DNA from: an uncultured Spirochaetaceae bacterium | GTDB taxonomy: Bacteria > Spirochaetota > Spirochaetia > Treponematales > Treponemataceae | DNA: 64,000 bases | Direction: 5' to 3' | Assembly: GCA_902797305.1 (NCBI GenBank) | Contig: CADBSK010000138.1 | Span: 18,185-82,184 of the forward strand | In this document: piece after piece, positions 26,929 through 41,926 of the stretch | Layout of the letters: every line of letters starts with the position of its first letter | How positions within the stretch are numbered: the stretch's first letter is position 1 | Made by a program: the position numbers and the translations under genes | The notes under the pieces: model-generated | What the model was told of the DNA's origin: nothing | Database searches by the model: none | What the model saw: only the letters and a program-made list of their open reading frames with translations

Positions 26929-28446
26929 CTATTTTAAGCGTGTTTCTATGCCTTTCAATTTTTGCTTCATTTCTTCATCTTGAGTAACAAGAAATATTGT
27001 TTCATTTAAGTCTTGACCTGTGGACCAGTAATCAGGATAAATACCTATGCCTTCGCCGTGCCAATTAGAAGACAGTGAAGGAAGAAGGTCCTTTTTAGCA
27101 CCTAATTGTAAACTAATTTTCGAATTTGGAAGAACATATTTACATATATCCATATAGGTACAACACCCAGCTGTATTTTCACCGATAACAATAACTTTAT
27201 CACTACCTAAGAATCTCTTTGCATTAAATATCAAATCTTCACTTACGCTTGCAGATTGCTTATCAACTATAATCAATAATTTACCATCAAATCCTTTTTG
27301 TTTATCTCTTAAATTAATTTTTATATTTTCAAAAAATTTTATTTGTGGATTCTCTTTCTGTTTTTTCAATTCCTTACAAATCTTTTTATAATAATATTTA
27401 TTCTGTTCTCCAGTTGATTGCAAATATGAAACTGTAGATTGAAAGTATCCAGGAGATTCCAGTTCTCTTCTCCTCACCATTTTTTTATTAAACCATTTAT
27501 CAATTCTTTTCTCATCCCTTATAAGATTTACTTTTCCACTCTCCTTAAACAGCGAATAAATAAACCCATTAGCGATATATGCTCTTCCGCCAAGATTAGA
27601 ACGTAAATCAATTATCACATTCTTTTTATCTCTCCAAGTAATACCTAAATTTGCAAATTTCTCAAAAACTATTTCGGCACCTTTTCTATACATTGATTTT
27701 TGTTCTGGTAAAACAAAACTAGATAAACTTGCATACCCTGTATTTTTAGTTTCAATTTCATGATACTTAATTAATGTAGAGCTTAAAAAATGCTTCTCTG
27801 CAGAAACATCTAGCTTCTGTTTTGTATTTTCAAATGAAAAATCAAAACAATTTATATCATTTTTACTTATAATACCTAAGCGATAAATATTTATTCCTTT
27901 TGAAGGGTAATAAAATAAATTATCCTTATCACCTGTATACATTTTCCCAAGACTTATATTTTCTCCGCCATTATCGACAACAAAGAAATAGCTATCATCT
28001 CTTTTTACATATACATTTGAAAAATAAACATTACTTTCCTTAAATAAATTATCGAATTCTTTTCCAGATTTTTTTTCTATACAAAAATGACCGTCTTCTG
28101 GATACGGACGCAAATAATCTGAAAGTTTTTTGTAAAAATCTCTAATGTTAATCTGAGTCTGAGCTCTATATAATTCTTCAAAATAAATTCGTAAATTATC
28201 AGGATTAAAACCTTTTTCAACAAAAATATCATATCCAATATACGATGTTTGAAGATAATATAATAATGCATCTATATCCTGCCCCATCTCATCAAATGTA
28301 ATAAAATTTTTCCGCTGTTCTGACTCCGTAGCAGATGGAATGTTTTTATATTCAACAGACTGGGAGAAAATTAGTCGTCGATTATCACCTGAAAAAACAA
28401 AATTATTTAAATACAAGGCTAATATAATGATAAAAAACTTTTTCAT
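26929..28446 (-). CDS. Secreted S41-family peptidase (paralog 4)
   Basis: Signal peptide; IIDLRSNLGG, DKQSASVSE, IGENTAG, GIYPD. Confidence 0.85.
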   Translation of the reverse strand: MKKFFIIILALYLNNFVFSGDNRRLIFSQSVEYKNIPSATESEQRKNFITFDEMGQDIDALLYYLQTSYIGYDIFVEKGFNPDNLRIYFEELYRAQTQINIRDFYKKLSDYLRPYPEDGHFCIEKKSGKEFDNLFKESNVYFSNVYVKRDDSYFFVVDNGGENISLGKMYTGDKDNLFYYPSKGINIYRLGIISKNDINCFDFSFENTKQKLDVSAEKHFLSSTLIKYHEIETKNTGYASLSSFVLPEQKSMYRKGAEIVFEKFANLGITWRDKKNVIIDLRSNLGGRAYIANGFIYSLFKESGKVNLIRDEKRIDKWFNKKMVRRRELESPGYFQSTVSYLQSTGEQNKYYYKKICKELKKQKENPQIKFFENIKINLRDKQKGFDGKLLIIVDKQSASVSEDLIFNAKRFLGSDKVIVIGENTAGCCTYMDICKYVLPNSKISLQLGAKKDLLPSLSSNWHGEGIGIYPDYWSTGQDLNETIFLVTQDEEMKQKLKGIETRLK

Positions 28447-28470
28447 ATGCTCCTCTCCATATTTTTATCT

Positions 28471-28659
28471 GTGCACTTTTTTTATAAACTTCAACGAAGC
28501 TATTTTCAGAGTTGATCAGACTCTGAGTATTTACATAAGTCTAGAAGAAATACCTTTCAATTTTTGCTTCATTTCTTCATCTTGTGTAACAAGAAAAATT
28601 GTTTCATTTAAGTCTTGACCTGTGGACCAGTAATCAGGATAAATACCTATGCCTTCGCC
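28471..28659. repeat. Cassette-junction repeat (S41 3' end, hairpin and conserved upstream motif)
   Basis: 28471-28638 is nearly identical to 30193-30359; its coding part also matches 26951-27057 and 35520-35626. Confidence 0.85.
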
Positions 28660-30018
28660 ATTCCAATAATCATATTTTTCTATCATTTTGTTTTTTGCAA
28701 AAGCAGTATTAATACCTGCTTTACTATTTGGCAAACAAATCGTAGCTACATCCCAATACATTGCTGAACCACTAGTATTCTCACCAATTACGGAAACACT
28801 TTCAGAACCAAAAATTTCTTTAGCCAGAGGAATTATAATTTCTCCTGCACTAGCAGAATTTCTGTCTGTCAAAATAATTATTTTTCCCTTAAATTTTGAC
28901 TCTTTTGAAAAGAGCTTTGATTTTTTATATCCTGCGGTTTCAATTACCTTTTCTGGATTTTCTATTTGACTGCTTAACAACGACACTTCTTTTTTTGAAG
29001 GTTTCTGGTTTCGATTATTTTTTAATAAGTATTTTGTCTTACAGCTCACTGGCGAAATTAAGTTTTCCCTCAGAGAAAAGGAATCAACAAACCATGAACT
29101 CATATTTGGTATCAACTTCGAAAAATCATTATTGTTCTTTCCAGAATACAAGACATAGAACATCGCTGCAGTATAAGCGGCATCTCCTCCTTCATTGGAT
29201 CTCATATCTAGAATAAGATTTTTTTTATTACCATACTTATATCCACACTCGATGAATTTATTAAAAATAATTTCCTTAGATTTCCGATCAGGAGAATCTA
29301 AATATGGAAGAAAAAATGTATTTAAAGCAATATACGCCGAATCCTTAGAGTCAAATGCTTTATATTTTGCATTTGTTTTTTCAATTGCTCCATCATTAAA
29401 AACTTCTAAACAATAGCTCTTATTATCAAAACTTACATCAATACTATTTAAAGGCTCTTTAGACAACTTAGCAATTCTATATACAGAAGAACCTTTTGAT
29501 GGGTAATAATACAAATTTTGTTGATCATCACAATATTTCAAATCAGGATTAATTCCCACAGTATTCGAAATAGAATAAAAATCCTCCCCTCTTTTTTCAA
29601 CATAACAATCTGTCCAATAACAGGTATATTTTTCAATCATTGTATAAATTTGTTTTTTTCCAATTAATTGAAAATGAGAATCTTTTATATAAGGTTTTAA
29701 GTTATCATTAAAAACTCGAATTAAATCATCTGTATAGATTACCTCTTTTCCTTCAAAATGAGTCATAACTGCATCTTTAAAAGATTTTTCATCAAAACCT
29801 TTATCAAGCATTTTATCATTTCCAGCATAACCCATATTTAAAACATACGACGTAAACTCTAAATCTTCTTTTAATTGTTCATACGAAATTTGCTCTTTGA
29901 CATATTTTTGATCTATAAAGAGTTCAATCTTATCATTAAAACTAATAATTTTCTGAGCCTGTAAAAAAAAACTGCTAGATAAACCTATAAAAACTAAAGC
30001 AACTAATCTCCTTTTCAT
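28531..30018 (-). CDS. Secreted S41-family peptidase (paralog 3)
   Basis: Signal peptide; ILDMRSNEGG, DRNSASAGE, IGENTSG, GIYPD. Confidence 0.85.
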   Translation of the reverse strand: MKRRLVALVFIGLSSSFFLQAQKIISFNDKIELFIDQKYVKEQISYEQLKEDLEFTSYVLNMGYAGNDKMLDKGFDEKSFKDAVMTHFEGKEVIYTDDLIRVFNDNLKPYIKDSHFQLIGKKQIYTMIEKYTCYWTDCYVEKRGEDFYSISNTVGINPDLKYCDDQQNLYYYPSKGSSVYRIAKLSKEPLNSIDVSFDNKSYCLEVFNDGAIEKTNAKYKAFDSKDSAYIALNTFFLPYLDSPDRKSKEIIFNKFIECGYKYGNKKNLILDMRSNEGGDAAYTAAMFYVLYSGKNNNDFSKLIPNMSSWFVDSFSLRENLISPVSCKTKYLLKNNRNQKPSKKEVSLLSSQIENPEKVIETAGYKKSKLFSKESKFKGKIIILTDRNSASAGEIIIPLAKEIFGSESVSVIGENTSGSAMYWDVATICLPNSKAGINTAFAKNKMIEKYDYWNGEGIGIYPDYWSTGQDLNETIFLVTQDEEMKQKLKGISSRLM

Positions 30019-30080
30019 TTCATCCCCACTCTAATTAAACCTCAGAAAGAATTAATTCAATCTGAGGTATTTTTTAAAAC

Positions 30081-30167
30081 TTATCTGCCGCCACCATAAA
30101 CGTGACCATCATCCCCACCTACTACAAGGTCAAGAACTTCTTCAGAAACTTCCAACAAAGTATTCAT
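30081..30167 (-). CDS. Double-glycine RiPP precursor F (28 aa): MNTLLEVSEEVLDLVVGG-DDGHVYGGGR
   Basis: Hand-translated; GGAGG RBS; leader matches the other five; downstream hairpin 30039-30068. Confidence 0.85.
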   Translation of the reverse strand: MNTLLEVSEEVLDLVVGGDDGHVYGGGR

Positions 30168-30192
30168 AGACACCCTCCATATAATTAATTTT

Positions 30193-30359
30193 GTGCACTT
30201 TTTTATAAACTTCAACGAAGCTTTATTCAGAGTTGATCAGACTCTGAGCATTTACATAAGTCTAGAAGAAATACCTTTCAATTTTTGCTTCATTTCTTCA
30301 TCTTGAGTAACAAGAAAAATTGTTTCATTCAAGTCTTGACCTGTGGACCAGTAATCAGG
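30193..30359. repeat. Cassette-junction repeat, second copy
   Basis: Near-identical to 28471-28638. Confidence 0.85.
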
Positions 30360-31760
30360 GAAGATACCAGCGCCCTCACCATACCAACAAGGATTATTTT
30401 CAAGATAATCATTTTTAGAAGAACATAAACTAATAGAAATACCTGTGTTAGGTAAATAATAATCCATCACATCCCAATATTTTGCACAACCACCTGAGTT
30501 CTCACCAATAACTATAACCTTATCAGGACCTATAATTTTTTTTGCTATAAGAACCATTGTCTCGCTTGCACTTAAAGTATTTCTATCTATTAGGAAAACA
30601 AGTTTGCCGTCATAGTTTGAAGAAAATTCAGTAGTTTTATTTTCAAGTGTTTGCGCAAAAGTATTTTTCTGCGGATTTTTCTGCATTTTTTTCATTTTCG
30701 TAACAAAAATTTTACCGTATGTAGTATTTAATTCATCTGTTATTTCAAATAATTTTAAATGTGCAAGAACTGTTGCTGGGGATTCTATTGTCGTAGTTTC
30801 AAAGTATGTAGAATCAAGAAATTTATACATTGTATTCTGTGTTTTATATGAAAATGCAGAATGCTTTTTATCATATAAAGACCAAATTGCATATTCCCCA
30901 TAAACAGCACGCCCCCCAACATTACTTCGTAAATCGATTATTATATTTTGCTTTTTATACCATTTGCTACCAATATTTGAAAATTTCTCAAGTACTAAAT
31001 CCGCCCCCTTTCTATATTTTGAATCTTCAGGAGGTAAAACAAAAGAAGAAAGACTCACATACACAGAACCTTTTGTTTCAATATCATGATATTTAATTGT
31101 AGGCGAATACTGAATAACACCATCGTCGTAAAGCTTTAAAGATATATTACCTTTGTTAAAAAGAAAGTCTTCATTACTTAACTCAGAACTTACAAATTTA
31201 CCTATTCGATATATAGAAGTACCTTTTGATGGATAATAAAACAAACATTTTTTATCACCTATGTATTCATCACCAACTTTTAAGTAAGAAGAATCTGTTT
31301 CACAGACATAATATTTGTTTTCATATTCGTTAACAAAGGTATTTGTTAATAAACAACTCAGATTTTTACAAGCAGATATTGCAAGCAATGCATTATGATC
31401 ATAAATTGTAAAATGACGATCTATTATATATTTAAACAGTACCTTATAAATATCCTCATATACATCTTTAGTAAAAATATTTTCTTGATTCTGGTACTTA
31501 TTCTTTATAAAACTGTCAATTTTTTCTTCATCATAACCATTTAATTTCATCTCTTCATATCCGACATAGGCTTGAGAAATATAATAAAAAAGAAAGTCTA
31601 GGTCATTTTCTAATTCCTTATAAGTTATGGTATTTTTTATATTCTTTGGCCAAACATAAATTTCTTTTAGCTGTGTCATTTCAGAATTTATTAGTTTTGA
31701 TGAAGAATAACTGTTAAACAAAGCTAGAGAAAATACAAAATATAAAATAATTTTTTTCAT
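30252..31760 (-). CDS. Secreted S41-family peptidase (paralog 2)
   Basis: Signal peptide; IIDLRSNVGG, DRNTLSASE, IGENSGG, GIFPD. Confidence 0.85.
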   Translation of the reverse strand: MKKIILYFVFSLALFNSYSSSKLINSEMTQLKEIYVWPKNIKNTITYKELENDLDFLFYYISQAYVGYEEMKLNGYDEEKIDSFIKNKYQNQENIFTKDVYEDIYKVLFKYIIDRHFTIYDHNALLAISACKNLSCLLTNTFVNEYENKYYVCETDSSYLKVGDEYIGDKKCLFYYPSKGTSIYRIGKFVSSELSNEDFLFNKGNISLKLYDDGVIQYSPTIKYHDIETKGSVYVSLSSFVLPPEDSKYRKGADLVLEKFSNIGSKWYKKQNIIIDLRSNVGGRAVYGEYAIWSLYDKKHSAFSYKTQNTMYKFLDSTYFETTTIESPATVLAHLKLFEITDELNTTYGKIFVTKMKKMQKNPQKNTFAQTLENKTTEFSSNYDGKLVFLIDRNTLSASETMVLIAKKIIGPDKVIVIGENSGGCAKYWDVMDYYLPNTGISISLCSSKNDYLENNPCWYGEGAGIFPDYWSTGQDLNETIFLVTQDEEMKQKLKGISSRLM

Positions 31761-31833
31761 ATATAAATGCCTAAAAGTATCTGACTGTTAAAAACAGCCA
31801 GATACTTATCTTTTGTCCTATAAAATTATAAGA

Positions 31834-32028
31834 TTAAAATCCTCCACAAAATACAGGAGTACCACCACCTGCAATAGTAGAACCAGTTCCTTGAAAACCT
31901 GTACCACTTTGATATCCATGACCAGCAGATGGATCTCCTCCAACAACATTCAATAATTCTTCTTCAGATAATTCAAACAGATTTCCGAATAAATTATTAA
32001 AACTTTCTTTTTTTAATGTTTTATTCAT
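31834..32028 (-). CDS. Double-glycine RiPP precursor E (64 aa): leader ..LFELSEEELLNVVGG, core DPSAGHGYQSGTGFQGTGSTIAGGGTPVFCGGF
   Basis: Classic ELSEEEL..VVGG leader; AAAGGA RBS before ATG 32028; downstream hairpin 31775-31807. Confidence 0.88.
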   Translation of the reverse strand: MNKTLKKESFNNLFGNLFELSEEELLNVVGGDPSAGHGYQSGTGFQGTGSTIAGGGTPVFCGGF

Positions 32029-32041
32029 TTTAATTCCTTTC

Positions 32042-32069
32042 ATAATTTAGAAGGCGCCTTCTAAATTAT
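32042..32069. promoter_or_regulatory. Perfect 28-bp palindrome upstream of precursor E
   Basis: ATAATTTAGAAGGC|GCCTTCTAAATTAT. Confidence 0.5.
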
Positions 32070-32152
32070 TTTCTTATTTTTTTTACTTTCATCCGAAAGC
32101 ATATTAAAAGACTCTGCGCAATAGTCTTTAATAATCTCATTTATTTATATTC

Positions 32153-33340
32153 TTACTTATTAATTAAACCCAGTTTAGTTAAAACAAAAATATACATTGG
32201 CTCTGTTCTAGAGATAATCTTACACTCTGCATTCATACCATTTATAAGTTCTATTTTTCTTTTATTACGTTTTTGTACAAAATACGACACGCTCAATTTC
32301 CCCTTTACAATATAACTCGTACTATCAAAATATTGGGAATCTTTTGAAATTTCAGAAACGACACCACCAATTCTTGAATACTCAGAAGATGGATATTTTG
32401 TAAAACTAATCGTAAAATTTTGCCCGCTTTTAATTTCTGCAATATCATCTGATGAAATATAAATATCAATATTTGGATTTTCAGTAGATTCAGGAATTAT
32501 TTTTGCTAGTATAGTATCCTCTAAAACAGAATCACCAATAACAGTCTTTTGAATTTCATCAATATACCCAGACACAGAAGCTCGGATTATAGTCTTTTCT
32601 AATTCATATTGATAATTTAATAAAGAAGACTTCTCATTTTGTATACTTTGATTTAGAGAAATTAATTTTTCAGAAACATCTTTCTTACTAGTAAAAACAT
32701 AATTTTTTAACTCCAATGAATCATCAAGCATTATTTTTTCATATTTTTCTAACTCCGCTTTACTTGTAAAACCTGGATATAGTTTTAATTCCCGTTCATA
32801 ATCCATTTTTGATTTTTCAGCACTTGCCTTTAATTGTTGTACTTTAGAAGAAAATGACTGTATTGCTGCATTACCTGATAATATGGCATCATTAACTTTA
32901 TTGTGCGTAATATAACTATCGATTATTGTTAGTAACTCATTATTATTATTGATTTCCGTGCTTAAACTCGCTATTCTTTTTTCAATAGAAATTATATTTT
33001 GCTTGATAGATTCATTCTTTAGCACATATAAAACTTGACCTTTTAAAACTTTTTGATTAGAAACAAATAACTTTTCTTCCAATACACCACTCGTAATAGG
33101 TACTATTTTTGAGATTTCTTCAGAAGGTCTTATCACCCCTTTTGCCCTTATTACAACATCATATGGCAAAAATATTACTAATAAAAATGAGAAAAGAACA
33201 ATTAATAAAACTGCGATAAATGATGATTTTATTATATCTGGTAACGACATCTCATAATATATTTTCGAAGCTGTTAATTCTTCTATACCAACAAACTTAA
33301 AAGAACAATTATCTTTATCTTTTTTAACCGAATCACTCAT
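32153..33340 (-). CDS. HlyD-family membrane fusion protein for peptide export
   Basis: N-terminal TM, VLKGQVLY, coiled coil, IRASVSGYI, GMNAECKII; adjacent to the C39 ABC exporter. Confidence 0.88.
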   Translation of the reverse strand: MSDSVKKDKDNCSFKFVGIEELTASKIYYEMSLPDIIKSSFIAVLLIVLFSFLLVIFLPYDVVIRAKGVIRPSEEISKIVPITSGVLEEKLFVSNQKVLKGQVLYVLKNESIKQNIISIEKRIASLSTEINNNNELLTIIDSYITHNKVNDAILSGNAAIQSFSSKVQQLKASAEKSKMDYERELKLYPGFTSKAELEKYEKIMLDDSLELKNYVFTSKKDVSEKLISLNQSIQNEKSSLLNYQYELEKTIIRASVSGYIDEIQKTVIGDSVLEDTILAKIIPESTENPNIDIYISSDDIAEIKSGQNFTISFTKYPSSEYSRIGGVVSEISKDSQYFDSTSYIVKGKLSVSYFVQKRNKRKIELINGMNAECKIISRTEPMYIFVLTKLGLINK

Positions 33341-33352
33341 ATTAATATCCTG

Positions 33353-35491
33353 CTACATATTCCAAAGTTTGTAATATAAACCTTTCAACCTTAAAAGTTC
33401 CTCATGAGTTCCTTTTTCCTCTATCTGCCCATTATTCATTACAAAAATTAAATCACTATTTACAATTGTCGAAAGCCTGTGAGCAACTGTAATTGTAATA
33501 ATCTTATTATCACCCAGCTCATCCACGACTTTTTGAAATTCTCTTTCACTAACAGTATCCAAAGCACTTGTGGCTTCATCTAACAAAAGAATTTTCGGAC
33601 AAGATAACAATGCTCTTGCAAGAGCAATACGCTGTCGTTCCCCACCACTTAAAGAAGAACCTCTTTCACTTATTTTTGAAAAATATTTATCTGGAAGATT
33701 TTCTATAAAAGTTGACGCTTGAGCTTTTTCACAGGCATTTTTTACATCTTCCAAAGAATATTCTGATCTACCCATTGTAATATTTTCATATATTGTTCCA
33801 CTAAACAAATACACTTCTTGAGGTACATAGCCTATAGAACTTCTTAAATAATCCGCTGATATATCATTCAAGTTTTGTCCCGATATTGTTATTGAACCAT
33901 TCTCAATTGAGTAAAATTTTAAAAGTAATTTCATAATAGTAGACTTACCACAGCCTGATGCTCCAACAAAAGCAATTTTATGATTATTATCTGTTGTAAA
34001 AGATAAATTTTCAAAAACAGGGTGTCTTACTCCATATCTGAAAGTCACATTATTAAATTCTATCGGTACTGATATATCTTGATTATCCACCGAAATCTGC
34101 TGATCACTATTTAATTTTTCTTTTTCTAGTTCAAAAATCTCACCAATTCTCTCTGCAGAAACCACAGCTTCTTGAATTTGCGGTTGAAAATCAATAAAAC
34201 GATTTAATGGGCCTGTAAAAAATGCTGATAAAGTATTAAAACTTATTAATTGTCCAAGGCTAAGTTTATCTTTTAAGATTAAATATCCACCAATCCAGAA
34301 AATTAAATTTACACTCAAGCCTGAAAGAAAATTTGTAAATAACTCTTTTATATTACCTTTATTCCAAGCCTCCTGTTGCAAATCTACATATTGAACAAGA
34401 TTCTCTTCATATTTTTGGGCAGAATATTCATGAGCATTTAAGCTTTTAATTACATGAAGTCCTGAAAACATTTCTATAAGGAAGGAATTTATTGAAGCTT
34501 TATGTCTTAACTGTTCTCTATAATTTTTAATAAAAAACTTTGAAAAACAATAAATAATTATGCTTGATAGAACAAATATAGAAATTAAAATCAAAAATAA
34601 GCTTAAATTTGAAATTGCTAAATAGATTCCAATAAAAAACATTATTACGAAATCCAAAATCGTACCAAACGCAATATTCGAAAATGCCAATCGAATTTTT
34701 TCACTATCATCAAAACGGCTTATTATTTCACCTGTTTGTCTCGAATCAAAGAAATCCACCGGTAATCTTAAAATATGCTTAATATAAGACATTGATAAAG
34801 AAATATCAGTCTTTAAGGAAAACAATCTTAAAAATTGAGAGCGTATAATCGTTAAAACACTTGTAAAAAAAGACAAAAAGACCGCTATCAAACTCAATGA
34901 ATGTAACGTTGTTATCGCTTTTGCACCTACCACATCATCAATAAAAAACTGAAAATATAATCCGCTACAAATGCCAATCAGACTTAAAAGTAAAGATGCA
35001 ACAAACATTAAAATCACAAATCTAATATGCGGTTTTATTAATGGTAAAAATTTTAATAATTTATTCTGTCCTTTGTTTATCTTAAAATCAGGTGTGGGTG
35101 ATACAAGTACAGAATAACCACTCCAAATCTTAAGAAAATCTTCCCTTCTATATTTGATTTTACTTCCTGCAGGATCAGCCACGTATACTTTTTTTTCTGA
35201 AATTTTATAAACTACAACAAAATGATTCCAACCAGCCTCATAAACAACATGAGCTATAAAAGGCACAGGAAATTCTCCATTTAATACTTCAGAATTTCCT
35301 TTAACTGCCTTTGCATCAAGACTTAAATTCTTACAAGCTTGTAATATGCCTCTTAAAGACGTACCGTTTCTGTCAGTACCAGCTATTTTTCGTATTTGAG
35401 TAATTGAATTATAACTTTTATAATATCGGCAAATCATTGCGATGCAAGCCGCACCACAATCGTTACCGTCAAATTGTTTTATTAATTTCAT
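33353..35491 (-). CDS. Peptidase-containing ABC transporter (C39 peptidase, TMD, ATPase)
   Basis: QFDGNDCGAAC, HFVVV, ADP (Cys-His-Asp); Walker A GASGCGKST; LSGGERQR; DEATSALD. Confidence 0.95.
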   Translation of the reverse strand: MKLIKQFDGNDCGAACIAMICRYYKSYNSITQIRKIAGTDRNGTSLRGILQACKNLSLDAKAVKGNSEVLNGEFPVPFIAHVVYEAGWNHFVVVYKISEKKVYVADPAGSKIKYRREDFLKIWSGYSVLVSPTPDFKINKGQNKLLKFLPLIKPHIRFVILMFVASLLLSLIGICSGLYFQFFIDDVVGAKAITTLHSLSLIAVFLSFFTSVLTIIRSQFLRLFSLKTDISLSMSYIKHILRLPVDFFDSRQTGEIISRFDDSEKIRLAFSNIAFGTILDFVIMFFIGIYLAISNLSLFLILISIFVLSSIIIYCFSKFFIKNYREQLRHKASINSFLIEMFSGLHVIKSLNAHEYSAQKYEENLVQYVDLQQEAWNKGNIKELFTNFLSGLSVNLIFWIGGYLILKDKLSLGQLISFNTLSAFFTGPLNRFIDFQPQIQEAVVSAERIGEIFELEKEKLNSDQQISVDNQDISVPIEFNNVTFRYGVRHPVFENLSFTTDNNHKIAFVGASGCGKSTIMKLLLKFYSIENGSITISGQNLNDISADYLRSSIGYVPQEVYLFSGTIYENITMGRSEYSLEDVKNACEKAQASTFIENLPDKYFSKISERGSSLSGGERQRIALARALLSCPKILLLDEATSALDTVSEREFQKVVDELGDNKIITITVAHRLSTIVNSDLIFVMNNGQIEEKGTHEELLRLKGLYYKLWNM

Positions 35492-35497
35492 TTTAAT

Positions 35498-37006
35498 TTA
35501 CTTTAAGCTAAATTCTATGCCTTTCAATTTTTGCTTCATTTCTTCATCTTGAGTAACAAGAAATATTGTTTCATTTAAGTCTTGACCTGTGGTCCAATAA
35601 TCAGGATAAATACCTACACCTTCACCATGCCAAATTGAGCAACTACTTAAAAATTTTAAATGTTCAGAACCTAAGTGTAATCTTAATTTACTTTCTGGCA
35701 GTAGATAATCATATATCTCACCATATTCCAAACTACCATACGAATTTTCCCCAATTATAATAATGCATTCATTACCAAAAATTTTCTTAGCAAAGACAGG
35801 AAACAATTCTGCCGCGCTAATAGAATTTCTATCTATCAAAAAAATTAACTGTTTGTCCCTTAATGGTGATGATATCCATTTACTTTCCGTATTACGATAC
35901 CAATAATTTATCTTTGGATTTTTCTTATGTTCTTTTAATATTCTTAAAGCATCTCTTTTATGATATTTTGAATTTTCTACTTCGTAGTTATTTATAAAAT
36001 TAAATTTAGCAGTAGCGATAACTGGAGAATCTATAAATTGTTTTTCGAAAAAATTATCTTCAAAAAACAAGTCCATCTTCTTTGTAAATTTTTCAAATTT
36101 CTTTTCGCTTATAAATGTGTTATATAAAAAAGTTTCTATACTATTTAGTTCTCCTCCCTTATTTCCTCTTAAATCAATTACAATATTTTTTTTATTTTTC
36201 CATTCTTGTGAAAGATTTTCAAATTTACTAAAAATAATTTCTGCACCCTTTCTTGTATTTGATTTTTTATGTGGAAACAAAAAACTAGAAATACTCACAT
36301 ACCCAGTCCTATCAGTTTCTATTTGATGATATTTAATTCCAAAACCTGAATCAATGTTTCCATCATCATACACTGGCATTTTTATTTTATTACCATTAAT
36401 TTCAAATTCAGCAGAGTCAATCCGCTTATCAGAAAGCACACCCAAACGATATACATTTTTTCCTTTTGCAGGATAATAAAATACATTTTCCTCTGATAAA
36501 GAAAATGAAGCCCCTTTATAAAATTTATCAAAATCTGATTCAATCAAATAATATTCATTATTCTTCTTTTCAAAAAAAGTATTAGTCCACAAAATTAACC
36601 TTTTTTTAGTTATGTAGTAATTTTCATTTGAAAGATTAGCCGAAATTGAAAAATGTCCATCTTTCACATAAAAAGCTAAATATTCAGAAATATCTTTCAT
36701 TAATTGTCTGGTATTTACGTTTTCTACACCAGTATATTTTTCTGTCAAAAAAATCTTAAATTTTTCTTCTTCAAATCCTTTCTGCCTCATTGAGTCATAA
36801 CCTGCATATGCAGATTTAAGGTAATAACAAATATAATCAATATCCTTCAATAATTGTTCATATGTTATTTCAGAAAGGCCTTTACTAAATTCATTCGGGA
36901 AATAACATTCTTTGATTTCACATTGTTCAGAATATAGAAGAGTATCATTTGCAAAAGTATTAAAACTCACGAAAAGCAATAAAAAAATTGAAATTACTTT
37001 TTTCAT
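35498..37006 (-). CDS. Secreted S41-family peptidase (paralog 1)
   Basis: Signal peptide; VIDLRGNKGG, DRNSISAAE, IGENSYG, GIYPD. Confidence 0.85.
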   Translation of the reverse strand: MKKVISIFLLLFVSFNTFANDTLLYSEQCEIKECYFPNEFSKGLSEITYEQLLKDIDYICYYLKSAYAGYDSMRQKGFEEEKFKIFLTEKYTGVENVNTRQLMKDISEYLAFYVKDGHFSISANLSNENYYITKKRLILWTNTFFEKKNNEYYLIESDFDKFYKGASFSLSEENVFYYPAKGKNVYRLGVLSDKRIDSAEFEINGNKIKMPVYDDGNIDSGFGIKYHQIETDRTGYVSISSFLFPHKKSNTRKGAEIIFSKFENLSQEWKNKKNIVIDLRGNKGGELNSIETFLYNTFISEKKFEKFTKKMDLFFEDNFFEKQFIDSPVIATAKFNFINNYEVENSKYHKRDALRILKEHKKNPKINYWYRNTESKWISSPLRDKQLIFLIDRNSISAAELFPVFAKKIFGNECIIIIGENSYGSLEYGEIYDYLLPESKLRLHLGSEHLKFLSSCSIWHGEGVGIYPDYWTTGQDLNETIFLVTQDEEMKQKLKGIEFSLK

Positions 37007-37070
37007 AAAAACCCCATAACAGTCGGAATGAAAAGGGCCCGTTTCATTCCGACAATATTAAATATTATTT

Positions 37071-37166
37071 TTAGTTACCAGCGTGGCAATAAGGAGCGCA
37101 ACATCCGCCCATAACTTCATCAAGCATCTCTTCAGATACTTCAAGAATAGCAACTGTATTTTTCAT
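37071..37166 (-). CDS. Double-glycine RiPP precursor A (31 aa): MKNTVAILEVSEEMLDEVMGG-CCAPYCHAGN
   Basis: Hand-translated; GGAG RBS; downstream hairpin 37022-37053. Confidence 0.85.
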   Translation of the reverse strand: MKNTVAILEVSEEMLDEVMGGCCAPYCHAGN

Positions 37167-37275
37167 TTTTTCTCCATAGTATTTAATATAAAGTACTTTT
37201 TACTGAATCAACGATTCATTTTTATATTGATCATGATCTCAATAATTTTTGAATTATTGATTATATTTTTTATAT

Positions 37276-37377
37276 TTATCTTCCGAATGGACCCGCATAT
37301 GGTCCAAAATAAATACCACCAGAAATTTCATCCAAACATTCTTCAGAAACTTCCAATAGTAAACTATTTTCAAGCAT
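37276..37377 (-). CDS. Double-glycine RiPP precursor B (33 aa): MLENSLLLEVSEECLDEISGG-IYFGPYAGPFGR
   Basis: Hand-translated; GGAGGT RBS; downstream hairpin 37239-37260. Confidence 0.85.
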   Translation of the reverse strand: MLENSLLLEVSEECLDEISGGIYFGPYAGPFGR

Positions 37378-37531
37378 AAAAACTACCTCCCTTTTTATTA
37401 TCTTGTGCACATTTTTATAAACTTCAACGAAGTTATTCATGAAGTTACACAAACTTCTCGTATCAATTAATAAATATTTTTAACAAGTAGAATTTAATCT
37501 TTCTTGTTAAAAGACCAATAAGAATATTTAT

Positions 37532-37657
37532 TTACCGTGCTGGAAGTCCGCCGTAACCGACACAATAACCTCCGGTAATTTCATCCAAATCTTCTCCTGT
37601 TACTTCTAACAAAAGATTAATTATACAACTATTAATCTTCTCTTTTAATTCTTTCAT
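37532..37657 (-). CDS. Double-glycine RiPP precursor C (41 aa): MKELKEKINSCIINLLLEVTGEDLDEITGG-YCVGYGGLPAR
   Basis: Hand-translated; GGAG RBS (alternative ATG at 37672); downstream hairpin 37477-37512. Confidence 0.85.
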   Translation of the reverse strand: MKELKEKINSCIINLLLEVTGEDLDEITGGYCVGYGGLPAR

Positions 37658-37740
37658 TTCATCGTTCTCCATTTTTTCAAAATTCTCAAGAAAGTTATAC
37701 AGTTCTCAGGTAATTAGAGAACTGTATATTTCACAAACAA

Positions 37741-37869
37741 TTATCGGCTCGGACAACCATAACAAGGCCCCAAACCTAATCCACCAGAAACTTCATCCAA
37801 ATCTTCTCCGGTTACTTCTAACAAAAGATTTATAACGTAATCATTAATCTTCTCTTTTAGTTCTTTCAT
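37741..37869 (-). CDS. Double-glycine RiPP precursor D (42 aa): MKELKEKINDYVINLLLEVTGEDLDEVSGG-LGLGPCYGCPSR
   Basis: Hand-translated; starts 1 nt after the rSAM stop with an AGGAGG RBS; downstream hairpin 37696-37728. Confidence 0.87.
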   Translation of the reverse strand: MKELKEKINDYVINLLLEVTGEDLDEVSGGLGLGPCYGCPSR

Positions 37870-37870
37870 C

Positions 37871-38992
37871 CTATTTTCCTCCTTTAATTAATCTATAATG
37901 ACACCTGCAAGGTTCTGATTTCATATCAGAATGCAAATGAATACCATTACCTAAACAACTCTTCCACTGTTTACAATGCTTACACTGCCCAACCTTTGCC
38001 CATTCACGATTACGCATATTTGTAAATTGATTTTCCCATATATCAGAAAAGTACTCAGTATAAATATTGCCTTGAATAAAATCCTTATTTCTAATGCTTA
38101 AACACCCCGTTACATCCCCATTACACATAACAGAAGCCACATGAACACCCGCTATACAGAAAAAGAAATTCTTTCTTACTTTTCGTTCATATCTTCCTAA
38201 ATATCCTTCACATGAGTATGAACAAGAAATCTTTTTATCATTGCTGTTTTTAAATGTATTTGTTTCAGCAATAAAATCTAGTAGTTGTGTATATTTTTCA
38301 AAAGATAATTTAATACCAGTTTTTGACGCACGCCCTTCTGGCCAAATGGAAAAAATCCTCCAAAATTCTACATTTTTATCAAATAAATAATTTCGTATTT
38401 TTTCCAAATTTTTAAAATTTTCATCATGCACACATGTAATCACATCATATAAAAACTTTGGATTCTTTTTACTTTGTTTAACAATAAAATCAATAGCCTT
38501 ACTAACATTTTCAAAACTTTTCGGATTTCGTCGCAAATAATTATGGTCTTCTTCCAAACCATCTAGAGAAACACTTATTGATAACATTCCTGCAGATACT
38601 AACGAATTAAACCTTTCCTCTGTTAAAAAAAGCCCATTAGTAACAATACCCCATGAAAAACCTCTTTTAACAATCTCTCTTCCTACATCTTCCAAATCTT
38701 TTCGTAAAAGAGGTTCCCCTCCCGTGATACAAACAAAAAGTTTCTTGTCGGGATTATTCTTTTTTATATCATCCAAAACTTTAATAAAGTCCTCTTTTGG
38801 CATATCTTTAACAGAAGAATCAGAAAGACAATCACTACCACAATGCAAACAAGAAAGATTACATCTCAAAGTACATTCCCAAAACAAATAAGTTAATTCA
38901 TGTTCTTTTATAGCTTTATCTCTTAGTTTAAAAAATAATCTTTTAGTCAAATACTCTTTAATAATTGTATTACTCACTTTTTTACACCTCAT
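37871..38992 (-). CDS. Radical SAM/SPASM peptide maturase (TIGR04133-like, splicease-related)
   Basis: LFWECTLRCNLSCLHCGSDC (CxxxCxxC), TGGEPL, SLDG; SPASM CIAG..NGDVTGCLSIR..QGNIY..CKHCKQWKSCLGNG. Confidence 0.85.
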   Translation of the reverse strand: MRCKKVSNTIIKEYLTKRLFFKLRDKAIKEHELTYLFWECTLRCNLSCLHCGSDCLSDSSVKDMPKEDFIKVLDDIKKNNPDKKLFVCITGGEPLLRKDLEDVGREIVKRGFSWGIVTNGLFLTEERFNSLVSAGMLSISVSLDGLEEDHNYLRRNPKSFENVSKAIDFIVKQSKKNPKFLYDVITCVHDENFKNLEKIRNYLFDKNVEFWRIFSIWPEGRASKTGIKLSFEKYTQLLDFIAETNTFKNSNDKKISCSYSCEGYLGRYERKVRKNFFFCIAGVHVASVMCNGDVTGCLSIRNKDFIQGNIYTEYFSDIWENQFTNMRNREWAKVGQCKHCKQWKSCLGNGIHLHSDMKSEPCRCHYRLIKGGK

Positions 38993-38997
38993 TATTT

Positions 38998-40209
38998 TTA
39001 TATTTCAAAATAGTTTTGTTTTCTTTTTAATAATTTATATGAATTCTCTATTCTTTCAGTGAAATCACAGCTTTTTTTATTATCATGAACACACCCCCCA
39101 TTACATTGATTCTTAATACAACATTTATCACATTTTTTATTTGAATACGAATCAGAAGTCAAATAAAAGTATTCAACTTCAGGGTTTATATTTTTCATTT
39201 TTTTCAAATCAAAAACTGATTTTTCAGCTTGCCCTAAATCATTCCAGCATTTTAGCATGTTACCATACCAATCAACTATATAAGTCTGTGCTTTTTGCGC
39301 ACTACACATAAAACAACTAGAAACTTTTTTCAAATAGTCCCTTTCATAAAAATTAAGTTGATTATCATATTTTAGTATTTCGAGGAATGATTCTTCATCC
39401 GATACTTCATTACTAATCTTATTCTGACAAGAAAAGAGATCAGTTTCTTTGGTAATATCCACCTTAAAAAAACTCCCATATCTTTGCAGGAAATAATTTC
39501 TCAGCTTTTGAATATCTTTAATATTGTTATCATTGACCTCAAATAAAATAGTAATAACGGGCGTATAAAAATTTGTCTTAAAGAAATTAAAAATTAATTC
39601 GCACTTATCCAAAAGTTTAATTAACTCAGATTTATTAGAAAAAATTGTTGCATGTATTAAAAATTGTAGATTATTTACACGCAAATCTTTAGTTATTCTT
39701 AATTCGCCTTCGCTTAATCCTAAGGTATTAGTTATAATTCCGTTATATACAATAATTCTTTTTGACTCTAATTCTTTTGTTAATTTTTCAATTAATAACG
39801 CTGTCTTATCAAAGTCTAATATATTCCAGTAGAATCTTATAATTTTTTGATTTTTTCGTTCACAAAATAGAACAAGTCTATCTAAGAACTCCTCACTAAT
39901 AATTATTCCACTTTTATTTTCAGGACAAACATAAATAGTTAAAACACTACTAAGCTGTTTTTTTAGCATTCGATAATTTCTGATTCTCTCAAAATCATCA
40001 GTTGTTTTATCTGATACAACTTCTATATTTTGTAGTTTTTCTAATAAACTATGATTTAAGTCTTCCTTTGAAGCTATAAAGTTTTCGATATTATTTCTTT
40101 CATCTTCAGTTATCTCAATAAATACACCCGTCTCTCCGGCATATAACACCCAAGACTTGTCCGAAGCAAATACTTTATTATGTTTATTCCACCAATATTT
40201 CGCACTCAT
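38998..40209 (-). CDS. Pseudo-radical SAM protein: RRE-like N-terminus, no CxxxCxxC, retained SPASM
   Basis: LTIYVCPENKSG sits where CxxxCxxC is expected; C-terminal CSA..YIVDWYGNMLKCW..KCDKCCIKNQCNGGC..C. Confidence 0.72.
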   Translation of the reverse strand: MSAKYWWNKHNKVFASDKSWVLYAGETGVFIEITEDERNNIENFIASKEDLNHSLLEKLQNIEVVSDKTTDDFERIRNYRMLKKQLSSVLTIYVCPENKSGIIISEEFLDRLVLFCERKNQKIIRFYWNILDFDKTALLIEKLTKELESKRIIVYNGIITNTLGLSEGELRITKDLRVNNLQFLIHATIFSNKSELIKLLDKCELIFNFFKTNFYTPVITILFEVNDNNIKDIQKLRNYFLQRYGSFFKVDITKETDLFSCQNKISNEVSDEESFLEILKYDNQLNFYERDYLKKVSSCFMCSAQKAQTYIVDWYGNMLKCWNDLGQAEKSVFDLKKMKNINPEVEYFYLTSDSYSNKKCDKCCIKNQCNGGCVHDNKKSCDFTERIENSYKLLKRKQNYFEI

Positions 40210-41671
40210 TTTCTAACTCTCTCTTCATGTATAAACTTGTAAATATATTATTTGAAAATCCAAGTATATAATCTTGTTCTGTTTTATAATAAGAATCAAT
40301 TTTTAATTCAGGACTATTTATCCAGAATTTTTCATACAAATCCTCATCAAAACTTGAAATCTTTGATAATTTTACAGGTATTTCAGAAATATCAATATCT
40401 TTATAGATATTTTGACCATAAGGCCATGCCGTTTTTTCATTTAATTTTCTATCATATAATGGAATTATCGAAGATATTTTTTCTACAAAAATATCAAAGA
40501 TCTTTTTATTTATCTGATTCGATTGTTCAGAAGTTATTATTTTCATTTCAACTGCACATAGCAAGCATGCATGAACAAGACTTCCGATAAATTGTGCAAA
40601 GAAATTTTTACCACTTTCTTCTCTTGCTGATAAATTAGAGTATAAAGAAGTTCTATCTAACCTATTCCTACAATATTCTTTCCAATCTTCCGGAAACAAA
40701 AATGGAAAACGCGCACGATCTAAGCTAGTTATATCAAAATCTCGATATACAACACGCCCTGTAAATTTCCAGTCCTTTGAAATTTCAATTAAAGTATTCT
40801 GACAATGACATTCAAGAGATATACCAAATCGAGAAAAAATCTCAAAAAACTTTTCAAAAATTGGCATTATAAAATCATTTATAAAAAAATCCTCAAATTC
40901 TTTACCTGAAGCCAAATATATTTTTTGAAAATAACAATCATTTTTGTCAACAACAGAAGTTAACGATACAATACTATAAATTGCAGTTCCTTCATTATCA
41001 TCAAAAATATTATCAAGACGTCTGATTACATTACCAAAACTTTTAATCTTATTAGGACCATAAGTGATATTATACTTTTTAGAAAAATGAATTGGATAAT
41101 CACCTGTTATTCCAAAAGCACCAATATCTTTTAATATAGAAAAATCATCTATCTTACTAACAATGTTTGCAGTACATTTTGAAAAGAAAAACTGACCATC
41201 TGCAGAAGTCCAGTCAATCTGGCGGGCACCATTAGCAACATTACCAAAAATGGAAACCTTAACAATAAAATATTCACTTGTATAAATATTTTTTACAACT
41301 AAAGATCTATAAGATGACGTTGGTGTAGCCTCAAATATAGATTTCTCTGGAGATATAAATTCATACTTATCCGCAATCCAATCTGTAAATATTTTTTCTG
41401 AAGTTGGATGAACAAAAAATGGATAATAAACAGAACCTTTTCGCTCTATAAAAATATGCTTCTCAAAAAATCCTTTTTGAGTTTCATCAATTTGTATTTT
41501 ATCTTTGCCAAAAGGGATCAAAAAATATCCAATTTTAAATACATTTTGACTTGATGGTTTATATTCTTCTGGAATATCCAATATAAATGAAATAGAATTG
41601 TCATTCTTATAAAGAGAATAATTATTTTTTACTTGCTCTGAATAAATAAACTTTTCTAATTTAACTCTCAT
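40184..41671 (-). CDS. IucA/IucC (NRPS-independent siderophore synthetase)-like protein
   Basis: FFVHP, ATPTSSYRSL, VKVSI..VANGAR, GISLECHCQNTLI, VVYRDFD resemble NIS synthetase motifs. Confidence 0.72.
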   Translation of the reverse strand: MRVKLEKFIYSEQVKNNYSLYKNDNSISFILDIPEEYKPSSQNVFKIGYFLIPFGKDKIQIDETQKGFFEKHIFIERKGSVYYPFFVHPTSEKIFTDWIADKYEFISPEKSIFEATPTSSYRSLVVKNIYTSEYFIVKVSIFGNVANGARQIDWTSADGQFFFSKCTANIVSKIDDFSILKDIGAFGITGDYPIHFSKKYNITYGPNKIKSFGNVIRRLDNIFDDNEGTAIYSIVSLTSVVDKNDCYFQKIYLASGKEFEDFFINDFIMPIFEKFFEIFSRFGISLECHCQNTLIEISKDWKFTGRVVYRDFDITSLDRARFPFLFPEDWKEYCRNRLDRTSLYSNLSAREESGKNFFAQFIGSLVHACLLCAVEMKIITSEQSNQINKKIFDIFVEKISSIIPLYDRKLNEKTAWPYGQNIYKDIDISEIPVKLSKISSFDEDLYEKFWINSPELKIDSYYKTEQDYILGFSNNIFTSLYMKRELENECEILVE

Positions 41672-41705
41672 CTTATACTACTTTAAAATAATCTACTTTA
41701 TATTA

Positions 41706-41737
41706 AATATGATATAAGACTATATCATATTCGTCAA
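41706..41737 (-). promoter_or_regulatory. Sigma70-type promoter of the RiPP operon overlapped by an 11-bp inverted repeat (candidate operator)
   Basis: Minus strand TTGACG(41737-41732)-N17-TATCAT(41714-41709); AATATGATATA-agac-TATATCATATT at 41706-41731. Confidence 0.62.
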
Positions 41738-41750
41738 TAACAATTATTAT

Positions 41751-41926
41751 AAAAATATACCTAAATTTATAGAAAAAATTGCAGAAGCTCTTGAAATAGA
41801 TCCTATTTTATTATTTAAAGATTCAAATACAAATGCAAAACTCAAAAAAAACAAAAAAAAATAACAAACGAATTAACAAACATTCTTGAAAAAGATATCG
41901 AGAGAGTTTTGTATAATTACTTATAA
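41751..41926 (+). pseudogene. Remnant of an XRE/HTH transcriptional regulator (C-terminal half, no start, frameshift in A-run)
   Basis: Translates KNIPKFIEKIAEALEIDPILLFKDS.., resembling the last helices of XRE proteins; upstream in-frame stop and no ATG. Confidence 0.5.

Follow-up and report, generated by a model that had tools for sequence, protein, structure and literature searches.

We analyzed a 64,000-nucleotide (nt) stretch of contig CADBSK010000138.1 (positions 18,185 to 82,184; hereafter the window) from an uncultured Spirochaetaceae bacterium, whose genome assembly is 2.5 Mb and 87% complete. Between positions 26929 and 41671, the window carries a block of 15 open reading frames (ORFs), all on the minus strand, that resembles a cluster for peptides that are made on ribosomes and then posttranslationally modified (RiPPs). 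It encodes an enzyme related to nonribosomal peptide synthetase-independent siderophore (NIS) synthetases, two radical S-adenosylmethionine (rSAM)/SPASM proteins, six small precursors with double-glycine (GG) leaders, a C39 peptidase-containing ABC transporter (PCAT), an HlyD-type adaptor, and four S41 peptidases (Table 1). We consider it very probable that this is a real RiPP cluster in which the NIS-like enzyme, a predicted ligase, acts on peptides. The block has a GC content of 28.4%, compared with 38.2% and 37.2% in its flanks and 36.0% genome-wide, and is bordered by prmC and an alpha-amylase gene on its two sides. A preliminary description made from the sequence alone had reported the gene content, order, and shared orientation of this AT-rich block, and these were borne out gene for gene. 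We number the precursors P1 to P6 in transcription order (D, C, B, A, E, and F in that description).

Profile searches agreed with the C39 exporter and S41 labels given there: the transporter scored 576.2 bits on TIGR01193 (cutoff, 523.85) and passed PF03412, and all four S41 proteins have a signal peptide, the Ser motif, and a PF03572 match above the cutoff. The pseudo-rSAM gene overlaps the NIS-like gene by 26 nt. The promoter proposed in front of the block (41737 to 41709) is a consensus match only, with 10 of 12 letters, but the promoter scan gave 83 sites against 89.7 in shuffled sequences, that is, no excess over chance.

Table 1. Features of the block and the evidence for their assignment
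Feature	Position	Strand	Evidence
NIS (IucA/IucC)-like, predicted ATP-dependent ligase, 495 amino acids (aa)	40184..41671	-	Predicted fold, invariant residues
Pseudo-rSAM/SPASM, 403 aa	38998..40209	-	CxxxCxxC and GGEP lost, SPASM cysteines kept
TIGR04133-family rSAM/SPASM, intact CxxxCxxC	37871..38992	-	457.9 bits, cutoff 425
Precursor P1 (D), core LGLGPCYGCPSR, CYG site, putative add-on module	37741..37869	-	
Precursor P2 (C), core YCVGYGGLPAR, GYG site, putative add-on module	37532..37657	-	
Palindromic element before P3, copy 1 of 3	37419..37432	-	
Precursor P3 (B), core IYFGPYAGPFGR	37276..37377	-	
Precursor P4 (A), core CCAPYCHAGN, same core in L001	37071..37166	-	
S41a peptidase, signal peptide	35498..37006	-	PF03572, 54 bits; tree
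PCAT	33353..35491	-	TIGR01193 pass; Cys, His, and Asp motifs present
HlyD-type adaptor	32153..33340	-	TIGR01843, 107.8 bits, below cutoff of 208.65
Precursor P5 (E), Gly-rich core of 33 residues with CGGF at its end; L001 has a homologous core	31834..32028	-	
203-nt repeat before P6	30199..30401	-	91% identical to 28478-28680
S41b peptidase	30252..31760	-	PF03572; tree
Precursor P6 (F), core DDGHVYGGGR, VYG site	30081..30167	-	
S41c peptidase, after P6	28531..30018	-	PF03572
203-nt repeat, second copy, before S41d	28478..28680	-	
S41d peptidase, no precursor of its own in the window	26929..28446	-	PF03572; tree

All six precursors have GG leaders, each is preceded by a purine-rich ribosome-binding stretch, and when the whole genome was scanned for the leader motif, six ORFs came up, all inside the block. 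The core of P4 is identical in a related locus (L001), where 7 of its 10 codons have changed synonymously and none nonsynonymously, whereas the enzymes encoded nearby are 46 to 75% identical. Since the core was kept despite silent codon changes next to enzymes that have diverged this far, the small ORFs are genes, and on these comparative grounds the six precursors postulated earlier are shown to be genuine genes under selection. In one study, two metatranscriptome runs (X2 and X5) gave contigs that cover P3 to P4, P5, and P6, as well as parts of P1-P2 and of the enzyme genes. This coverage proves neither transcription nor modification of the cores, and parts not covered were not counted as absent.

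Searches with the ligase gave 34 close homologues, and 40 representatives at an E value of 1e-30 or better. We compared 16 related ligase loci, one of which duplicates another (L009 and L005) and three of which end too soon (L012, L013, and L015). The next ORF after the ligase gene was an rSAM/SPASM gene or its remnant in all 13 loci with downstream DNA, so that the synteny asked for in the preliminary description does exist in other genomes. On contigs that extend far enough, a GG precursor, S41, PCAT, and HlyD are present, the one exception being the lack of a PCAT in L008. The flanks vary, with HipA, IS66, and methyltransferase genes among them. The conserved core is thus the NIS-like ligase, the rSAM/SPASM protein, a GG-leader precursor, S41, and the C39 exporter with HlyD. 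The genomes holding related loci belong to the window's genus, where the ligase occurs in 6 of 338 genomes; it was absent from 400 other genomes drawn from the phylum, and a plasmid search with it gave no match.

The ligase is not recognized as an IucA/IucC protein by Pfam profiles (FhuF, 16.4 bits with a cutoff of 25.2; PF04183, no match at an E value of 0.1), although some homologues do carry PF04183, and a sequence search of the PDB gave nothing significant. An Atlas feature search placed it with IucA/FhuF clusters at 0.97. The AlphaFold2 model (predicted local distance difference test, 87.5) matched IucC, NcdF, and AcsD in Foldseek at an E value of 1e-13. Its alignment to AcsD had a Z score of 27.0 and a root mean square deviation of 3.6 over 370 residues, AsbB likewise reached a Z score of 27, and the next unrelated fold had a Z score of 12. 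By its model, the enzyme is therefore established as NIS-like in fold though it stays below the Pfam cutoff, and the label IucA/IucC-like of the preliminary description holds for the fold but not for the profile. The structural match begins at AcsD residue 157, so the N-terminal thumb region of NIS synthetases is missing; residues 420 to 490 form an extra beta-rich C-terminal unit, for which an Atlas search found no match. Ligase R150, E287, H289, and the D311 region are invariant in 31 of 31 sequences, and in a profile alignment the first three correspond to AcsD R305, E442, and H444. According to the available passages of the AcsD paper, R305 is critical for forming the adenylate and E442 acts as a general base (PMC3323832). 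Taken with the model, this makes it likely that the ligase adenylates a carboxylate. Among distant relatives of the ligase, P0183, P0206, P0207, P0212, P0243, and P0244 are fused to other domains, which are TIR-like, zeta-toxin-like kinase, cytidylyltransferase, or SelO domains.

We surveyed 18 distinct cores from the window and the related loci; a Ser-rich precursor encoded on the L002 minus strand escaped the search pattern and is outside this set. No side chain is common to all 18: Lys occurs in 1, 6 lack Asp and Glu, and 8 lack Tyr. The C-terminal carboxylate is the sole carboxylate present in every core and hence the candidate target, and we lean slightly toward its activation by the ligase. 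The next-to-last residue is Gly, Ser, or Ala in 18/18 cores, which 0 of 20,000 random draws reached, and in the native cores of the pseudo-rSAM clade, P1 and P2 left out, it is Gly in 6/6 (P = 0.0003). Several points weigh against this reading. The penultimate-residue statistic is post hoc, and the cores are related to one another and rich in Gly and Ser; P1 and P2 end in PSR and PAR. No amine-supplying gene lies inside any cluster, and the diaminobutyrate decarboxylase gene ddc, present in 6/6 ligase genomes, is also found in 117/338 genomes of the genus, the ligase genomes being kin. To our knowledge, all characterized NIS enzymes activate a small acid, not a peptide.

An adenylate at the C terminus could also be captured from within, by a Cys, Tyr, Ser, or His side chain or a backbone nitrogen, giving a macrocycle. 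Such a reaction needs no amine gene, which suits the clusters, the cores are rich in these four residues, and the available passages on the ThiF-like enzymes GrcB, EnfB, and IndF supply a precedent (PMC12250964 and PMC12596934). However, core length varies between 10 and 63 residues, long Ser/Gly/Asn tails occur in several cores, and the cores hold no nucleophile at a shared distance from the end; we regard macrocyclization as unlikely.

A further alternative is canonical NIS chemistry, in which citrate or a similar small acid would be activated and would acylate Ser, Thr, or Tyr of the peptide. AcsD itself makes O-citryl-serine, as stated in the part of the paper at hand (PMC3323832), sister-clade cores end in poly-Ser tails, and the genome has one TonB-dependent receptor. 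The products would then be metal-binding or Trojan-horse peptides. Peptides of this kind follow the logic of class IIb microcins. Against this chemistry, P3, P4, and P6 have neither Ser nor Thr, Lys is almost absent from the cores, the thumb domain is missing, and no iron-uptake genes lie beside any locus tested; siderophore genes were found neither among 31 flanking proteins tested nor in the block. We therefore rate it as quite improbable, and return to C-terminal activation as the preferred reading.

The enzyme next to the ligase differs between clades. The CxxxCxxC motif and GGEP are kept in 7 of 10 aligned partner rSAMs, which adjoin Cys-rich cores, many of them poly-Ser-tailed, and which score 194 to 234 bits on TIGR04334 (cutoff, 600). 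Those of the window, L001, and L002 have lost both motifs and retained the SPASM cysteines, in line with the earlier designation as a pseudo-rSAM. The ligases of this dead-rSAM clade are monophyletic with 97% support and nested among those with intact partners, so loss of the SAM cluster is derived. Compared with L001, the pseudo-rSAM has nonsynonymous and synonymous substitution rates of 0.46 and 1.97 (ratio, about 0.23), and by this estimate it is under purifying selection even though the SAM cluster has been lost. Its model opens with three strands and three helices, the RiPP recognition element (RRE) layout, and its best fold match is CteB (5WHY; E value, 3e-9). The simplest reading, likely on the basis of the model, is a putative leader-binding adaptor. 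It counts against this that the RRE-like head (46% identity) shows no conservation contrast with the dead barrel (41%), so that the head is not singled out as the selected part.

Several loci have damaged or rearranged enzyme genes. At L003:7290-7889 and L006:1514-2206, which lie in two genomes, deletions of one kind have left remnant genes that fuse the first 60 to 85 ligase residues to the SPASM end of the rSAM; an S41 gene is kept downstream. Two complete units of ligase and intact rSAM with different cores lie in tandem at L003:7290-21432, and genome G403 holds both this tandem and the pseudo-rSAM cluster L001. The ligase and rSAM genes are split at L016:1410-3509, the PCAT gene is split at L001:16284-18422, and the pseudo-rSAM gene is truncated at L007:11450-11700. 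Either producer genes decay frequently, or the last three are assembly errors.

The constancy of the ligase and its partner also bears on a rival view, in which the NIS-like gene serves to make a small molecule and is just a passenger of a bacteriocin cluster whose peptides are unmodified or modified by the rSAM enzyme only. In favor of this view, the more distant ligase relatives (E values near 1e-50 and weaker) are IucA-domain proteins with no known context. Adjacency and overlap of the ligase and rSAM genes, however, are fixed in 13/13 informative loci, and since the rSAM is dead in the window's clade, the ligase is the only core enzyme left there, which makes this explanation very improbable.

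The S41 peptidases follow the cores. As sisters, the tree pairs S41a with the S41 behind the same core in L001 (support, 100/98), S41b with that behind a P5-like core in L001 (100/99), and S41d with that behind a DSTSGNMTGGQ core in L002 (97/95); in the sister clade, two further S41 pairs follow like cores. This pairing, like the sister clade with intact rSAMs, goes beyond what the preliminary description saw. The S41 family is found in 69/338 genomes of the genus, compared with 6/338 for the ligase. Of 29 S41 loci, 2 are ligase clusters and 1 has another GG ORF close by. The other 26 are solitary, with neither a cluster enzyme nor a leader ORF encoded within 1.5 kb, and these solo S41s interleave with cluster S41s in the tree. 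A PDB sequence search with S41a gave no match at an E value of 0.1. At G000:C84:7089-10751 (L063; G000 is the window genome), two S41 genes and a transglutaminase-like gene lie behind fabG. One of these S41 genes, of the sister-clade type, shares 95% DNA identity with the S41 gene in the cluster of L016, which carries the whole cluster at that fabG site, and the ligase, rSAM, precursors, and PCAT are gone from L063.

Because S41 lineages track core types and also stand alone, an immunity role is suggested, and we judge it reasonably probable from the sequence pattern that the S41s are cognate immunity peptidases. The products would then likely be antimicrobials that the S41 proteases neutralize. 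In opposition to this, the L006 core resembles those of L005 and L016, yet its S41 belongs to another lineage, S41a follows four precursors, and the solo S41s might act as general peptidases of the periplasm. The same pairing would suit strain-specific peptide signals, with the S41s as maturation or signal-clearing enzymes, and cores of 10 to 12 residues do resemble pheromones. However, the block has no regulator or sensor kinase, and S41s persist alone even where the cluster is lost; signaling is accordingly a minority option, though one to be taken seriously. Some S41 genes have other neighbors. A dat/ddc pair (1,3-diaminopropane synthesis) immediately precedes a solo gene of this S41 family at G000:C33:2592-6920 (L062), and likewise in G255 (L078). 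In G257, which has no ligase, a GG-leader ORF with a Ser/Gly-rich core lies near an S41 gene (L070:23-295); this may be another peptide system that employs this S41 family.

Cores and S41 genes also appear to change together. In contigs of both X2 and X5, the P6 leader is kept and followed by 86 other letters that run straight into S41d, and the P6 core and S41c are both absent. In X2, the first 30 of the replaced letters translate to a core that starts with DSTQG and contains SGGN, and this DST-type core before S41d is the type predicted from the L002 sister. The seam falls inside the 203-nt repeat, which consists of an S41 3' end, two small hairpins, and a palindromic element, and this repeat is likely the seam for cassette exchange. 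The palindromic 15-mer has three exact copies in the genome, all in the block, and two copies before L001 precursors. As a structured RNA, the upstream palindrome was rejected (z from -1.65 to +0.52 in 5/5 folds; no Rfam match).

The TIGR04133 rSAM is of a different standing. The preliminary description had defined the class by three enzymes including this one; it is absent from 16/16 related ligase loci and from 4 of 5 other ligase genomes, the fifth having it on another contig. It is therefore the ligase with its rSAM partner that defines the class, rather than the set of three enzymes. Nor do the cores form a library of Tyr-containing peptides as supposed, in view of the Tyr count above; YG is found in 3/18, all from the window (3/6 window cores and 0/12 others), and P3 and P6 have no Cys. 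The TIGR04133 family occurs in 60/338 genomes of the genus. Of 29 other loci in the genus, 27 encode, no more than 1.5 kb away, a small protein bearing YG close to its N terminus, compared with 27 of 300 random windows; both misses lie at contig edges. A lipobox-like motif is present in 25 of these YG proteins, and of six tested, four matched TIGR04134 at E values below 1e-6 and one above the cutoff. In L032 to L060, YG stands directly behind the lipobox cysteine in most loci, as T/V-S-C-Y-G in 20. In the window genome, at its stated completeness, no TIGR04134 lipoprotein was found adjacent to the rSAM or elsewhere, and tblastn of two YG lipoproteins against it gave only E values of 0.36 and 0.49. 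The P2 leader DNA is 81% identical to that of P1, and a contig of X2, from a related strain, joins 37390 to 38996, skipping the TIGR04133 rSAM, P1, and P2. By these comparisons, the TIGR04133 rSAM and the two YG precursors are, to all appearance, a strain-level addition taken over from a YG-lipoprotein system, although the X2 join is a single contig in which the letters between are not known. We also considered P1 and P2 N termini as TIGR04134-derived hybrid leaders, using a profile of 20 lipoprotein N termini; 4/300 shuffles matched for P1, driven by CYG alone, and 59/300 for P2, and the idea was rejected.

XYG is the site of splicease action, as far as the available passages go (PMC11414181, PMC9811515, PMC10849128, PMC11002830, and PMC11626197), and like the spliceotide precursors of PlpXYA and RhaXA, P1, P2, and P6 contain it. 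The label splicease-like in the preliminary description has its basis in the XYG substrate motif and not in a match to a splicease family: the protein scored 94.4 bits on TIGR04103 and 97.4 bits on TIGR03913, far below the cutoffs, and against a splicease assignment it scored higher on NirJ-like models (113 bits). On sequence evidence, we hold XYG splicing by this enzyme to be evenly balanced. The family is shared with the TIGR04133/TIGR04134 pairs, whose usual rSAM neighbors carry XYG; in the window, GG-leader secreted peptides take the place of the lipoprotein. In the literature searched, we found neither splicing by TIGR04133 enzymes nor a paper naming TIGR04133, and the splicease classification of Scott et al. 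(2022) or its supplement may already cover the family.

Compared with known systems, the ligase shares its fold (Z scores of 20.5 to 27) and its ATP and adenylation residues with the NIS synthetases AcsD, AsbB, SbnC, IucA/IucC, and DesD, but it is only 11 to 16% identical to them, lacks the thumb, has the additional C-terminal beta domain, and is encoded beside peptide precursors and a PCAT instead of siderophore genes. Adenylation of RiPP C termini is known for ThiF-like enzymes (PMC12250964; the available passages of PMC12596934 do not mention NIS or IucA), and, in the sources as available, the asparagine-synthetase-like FzmA puts hydrazine on a peptide C terminus and PesC forms a nitrile. 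The folds of ThiF-like and asparagine-synthetase-like enzymes are unrelated to that of the ligase. In the GRC system, too, rSAMs are combined with an adenylating enzyme, and the RRE is a separate one (PMC12250964); the window system differs from other C-terminally activating RiPPs in having no ligase-fused RRE, variable cores, and paired S41s. The partner rSAM has the RRE-rSAM-SPASM architecture of CteB, PapB, and the TIGR04334 Clo7bot maturases, but it falls below every equivalog cutoff for ranthipeptide-type maturases and in the window's clade has no SAM cluster; the active rSAM and Cys donors that mark ranthipeptides and sactipeptides occur together only in the sister clade. Bacteroidales GG-leader clusters with an rSAM and a pseudo-rSAM (IPR026418) share GG precursors, PCAT, and a pseudo-rSAM with the window, and in the passages available no function is assigned to the pseudo-rSAM (PMC10352776). 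There the pseudo-rSAM accompanies an active rSAM, whereas that of the window derives from the cluster's own rSAM and accompanies the NIS-like ligase.

The nisin resistance protein NSR is an exported S41 peptidase proposed to destroy a RiPP. The window S41s differ from it in their length of about 500 aa, in the lack of a PDB match mentioned above, and in their arrays of lineages paired with core types. Within the literature in reach, which excludes most subscription papers and bioRxiv supplements, we found no NIS enzyme in a RiPP pathway and no account of this Treponema system or its enzyme combination, as the preliminary description had supposed. The system is real and recurrent, and it is apparently undescribed.

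Our best explanation of the whole joins C-terminal peptide ligation by an NIS-fold enzyme, GG export, and paired S41 protection, and we give it even weight. The pseudo-rSAM, with its RRE-like head and SPASM cysteines, would bind the leader and offer the peptide to the ligase, which itself lacks an RRE. The intact rSAM of the sister clade would add thioether cross-links to the Cys-rich cores. The ligase would adenylate the C-terminal carboxylate, at G-X ends here and, in the sister clade, at S/A-rich ends; the adenylate would then be captured by a small amine, for which 1,3-diaminopropane is a weak candidate. Going by knowledge of the family, PCAT and HlyD, with a TolC from elsewhere, would cut at GG and secrete the core, a logic taken from the available part of PMC10885120. 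In P1, P2, and perhaps P6, the TIGR04133 enzyme would excise tyramine at XYG. The periplasmic S41s would serve as cognate immunity peptidases, and core-S41 cassettes would swap by recombination at repeated S41 3' ends, leaving orphan S41s. More tentatively, and with somewhat less confidence than even, we propose that the system stands for a new class of RiPPs. In it, an NIS synthetase would have turned C-terminal ligase, a dead rSAM would serve as its leader-binding subunit, modified cores and cognate S41 immunity proteases would be shuffled between gut treponemes in the form of polymorphic cassettes, and a captured lipoprotein-modifying splicease would yield hybrid keto-amide peptides.

Elsewhere in the window genome, two further C39-ABC/HlyD sets (G000:C65:8409-14384 and G000:C97:2408-7032) have no precursor seen nearby. 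Both precede a gene of 439 to 462 aa that is TolC-like by look, and the former runs on into an rSAM gene cut at the contig end. Within the window, positions 21781 to 23562 encode a lipoprotein of 593 aa in which small modules are repeated in the N-terminal part and an FGE-sulfatase domain lies at the C-terminal end.

If the proposal is true, the ligase would represent a third fold, after the ThiF-like and asparagine-synthetase-like enzymes, for ATP-dependent chemistry at the end of a ribosomal peptide, and its tolerance of cores of such different lengths (10 to 63 residues) would be useful in peptide engineering. Intact and dead rSAMs with the same ligase offer a natural before-and-after pair for pseudo-rSAM function, and the system would supply short soluble substrates for TIGR04133 enzymes, whose usual substrates are lipoproteins. 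For the organisms themselves, the system points to peptide competition with cognate proteolytic immunity among gut spirochetes.

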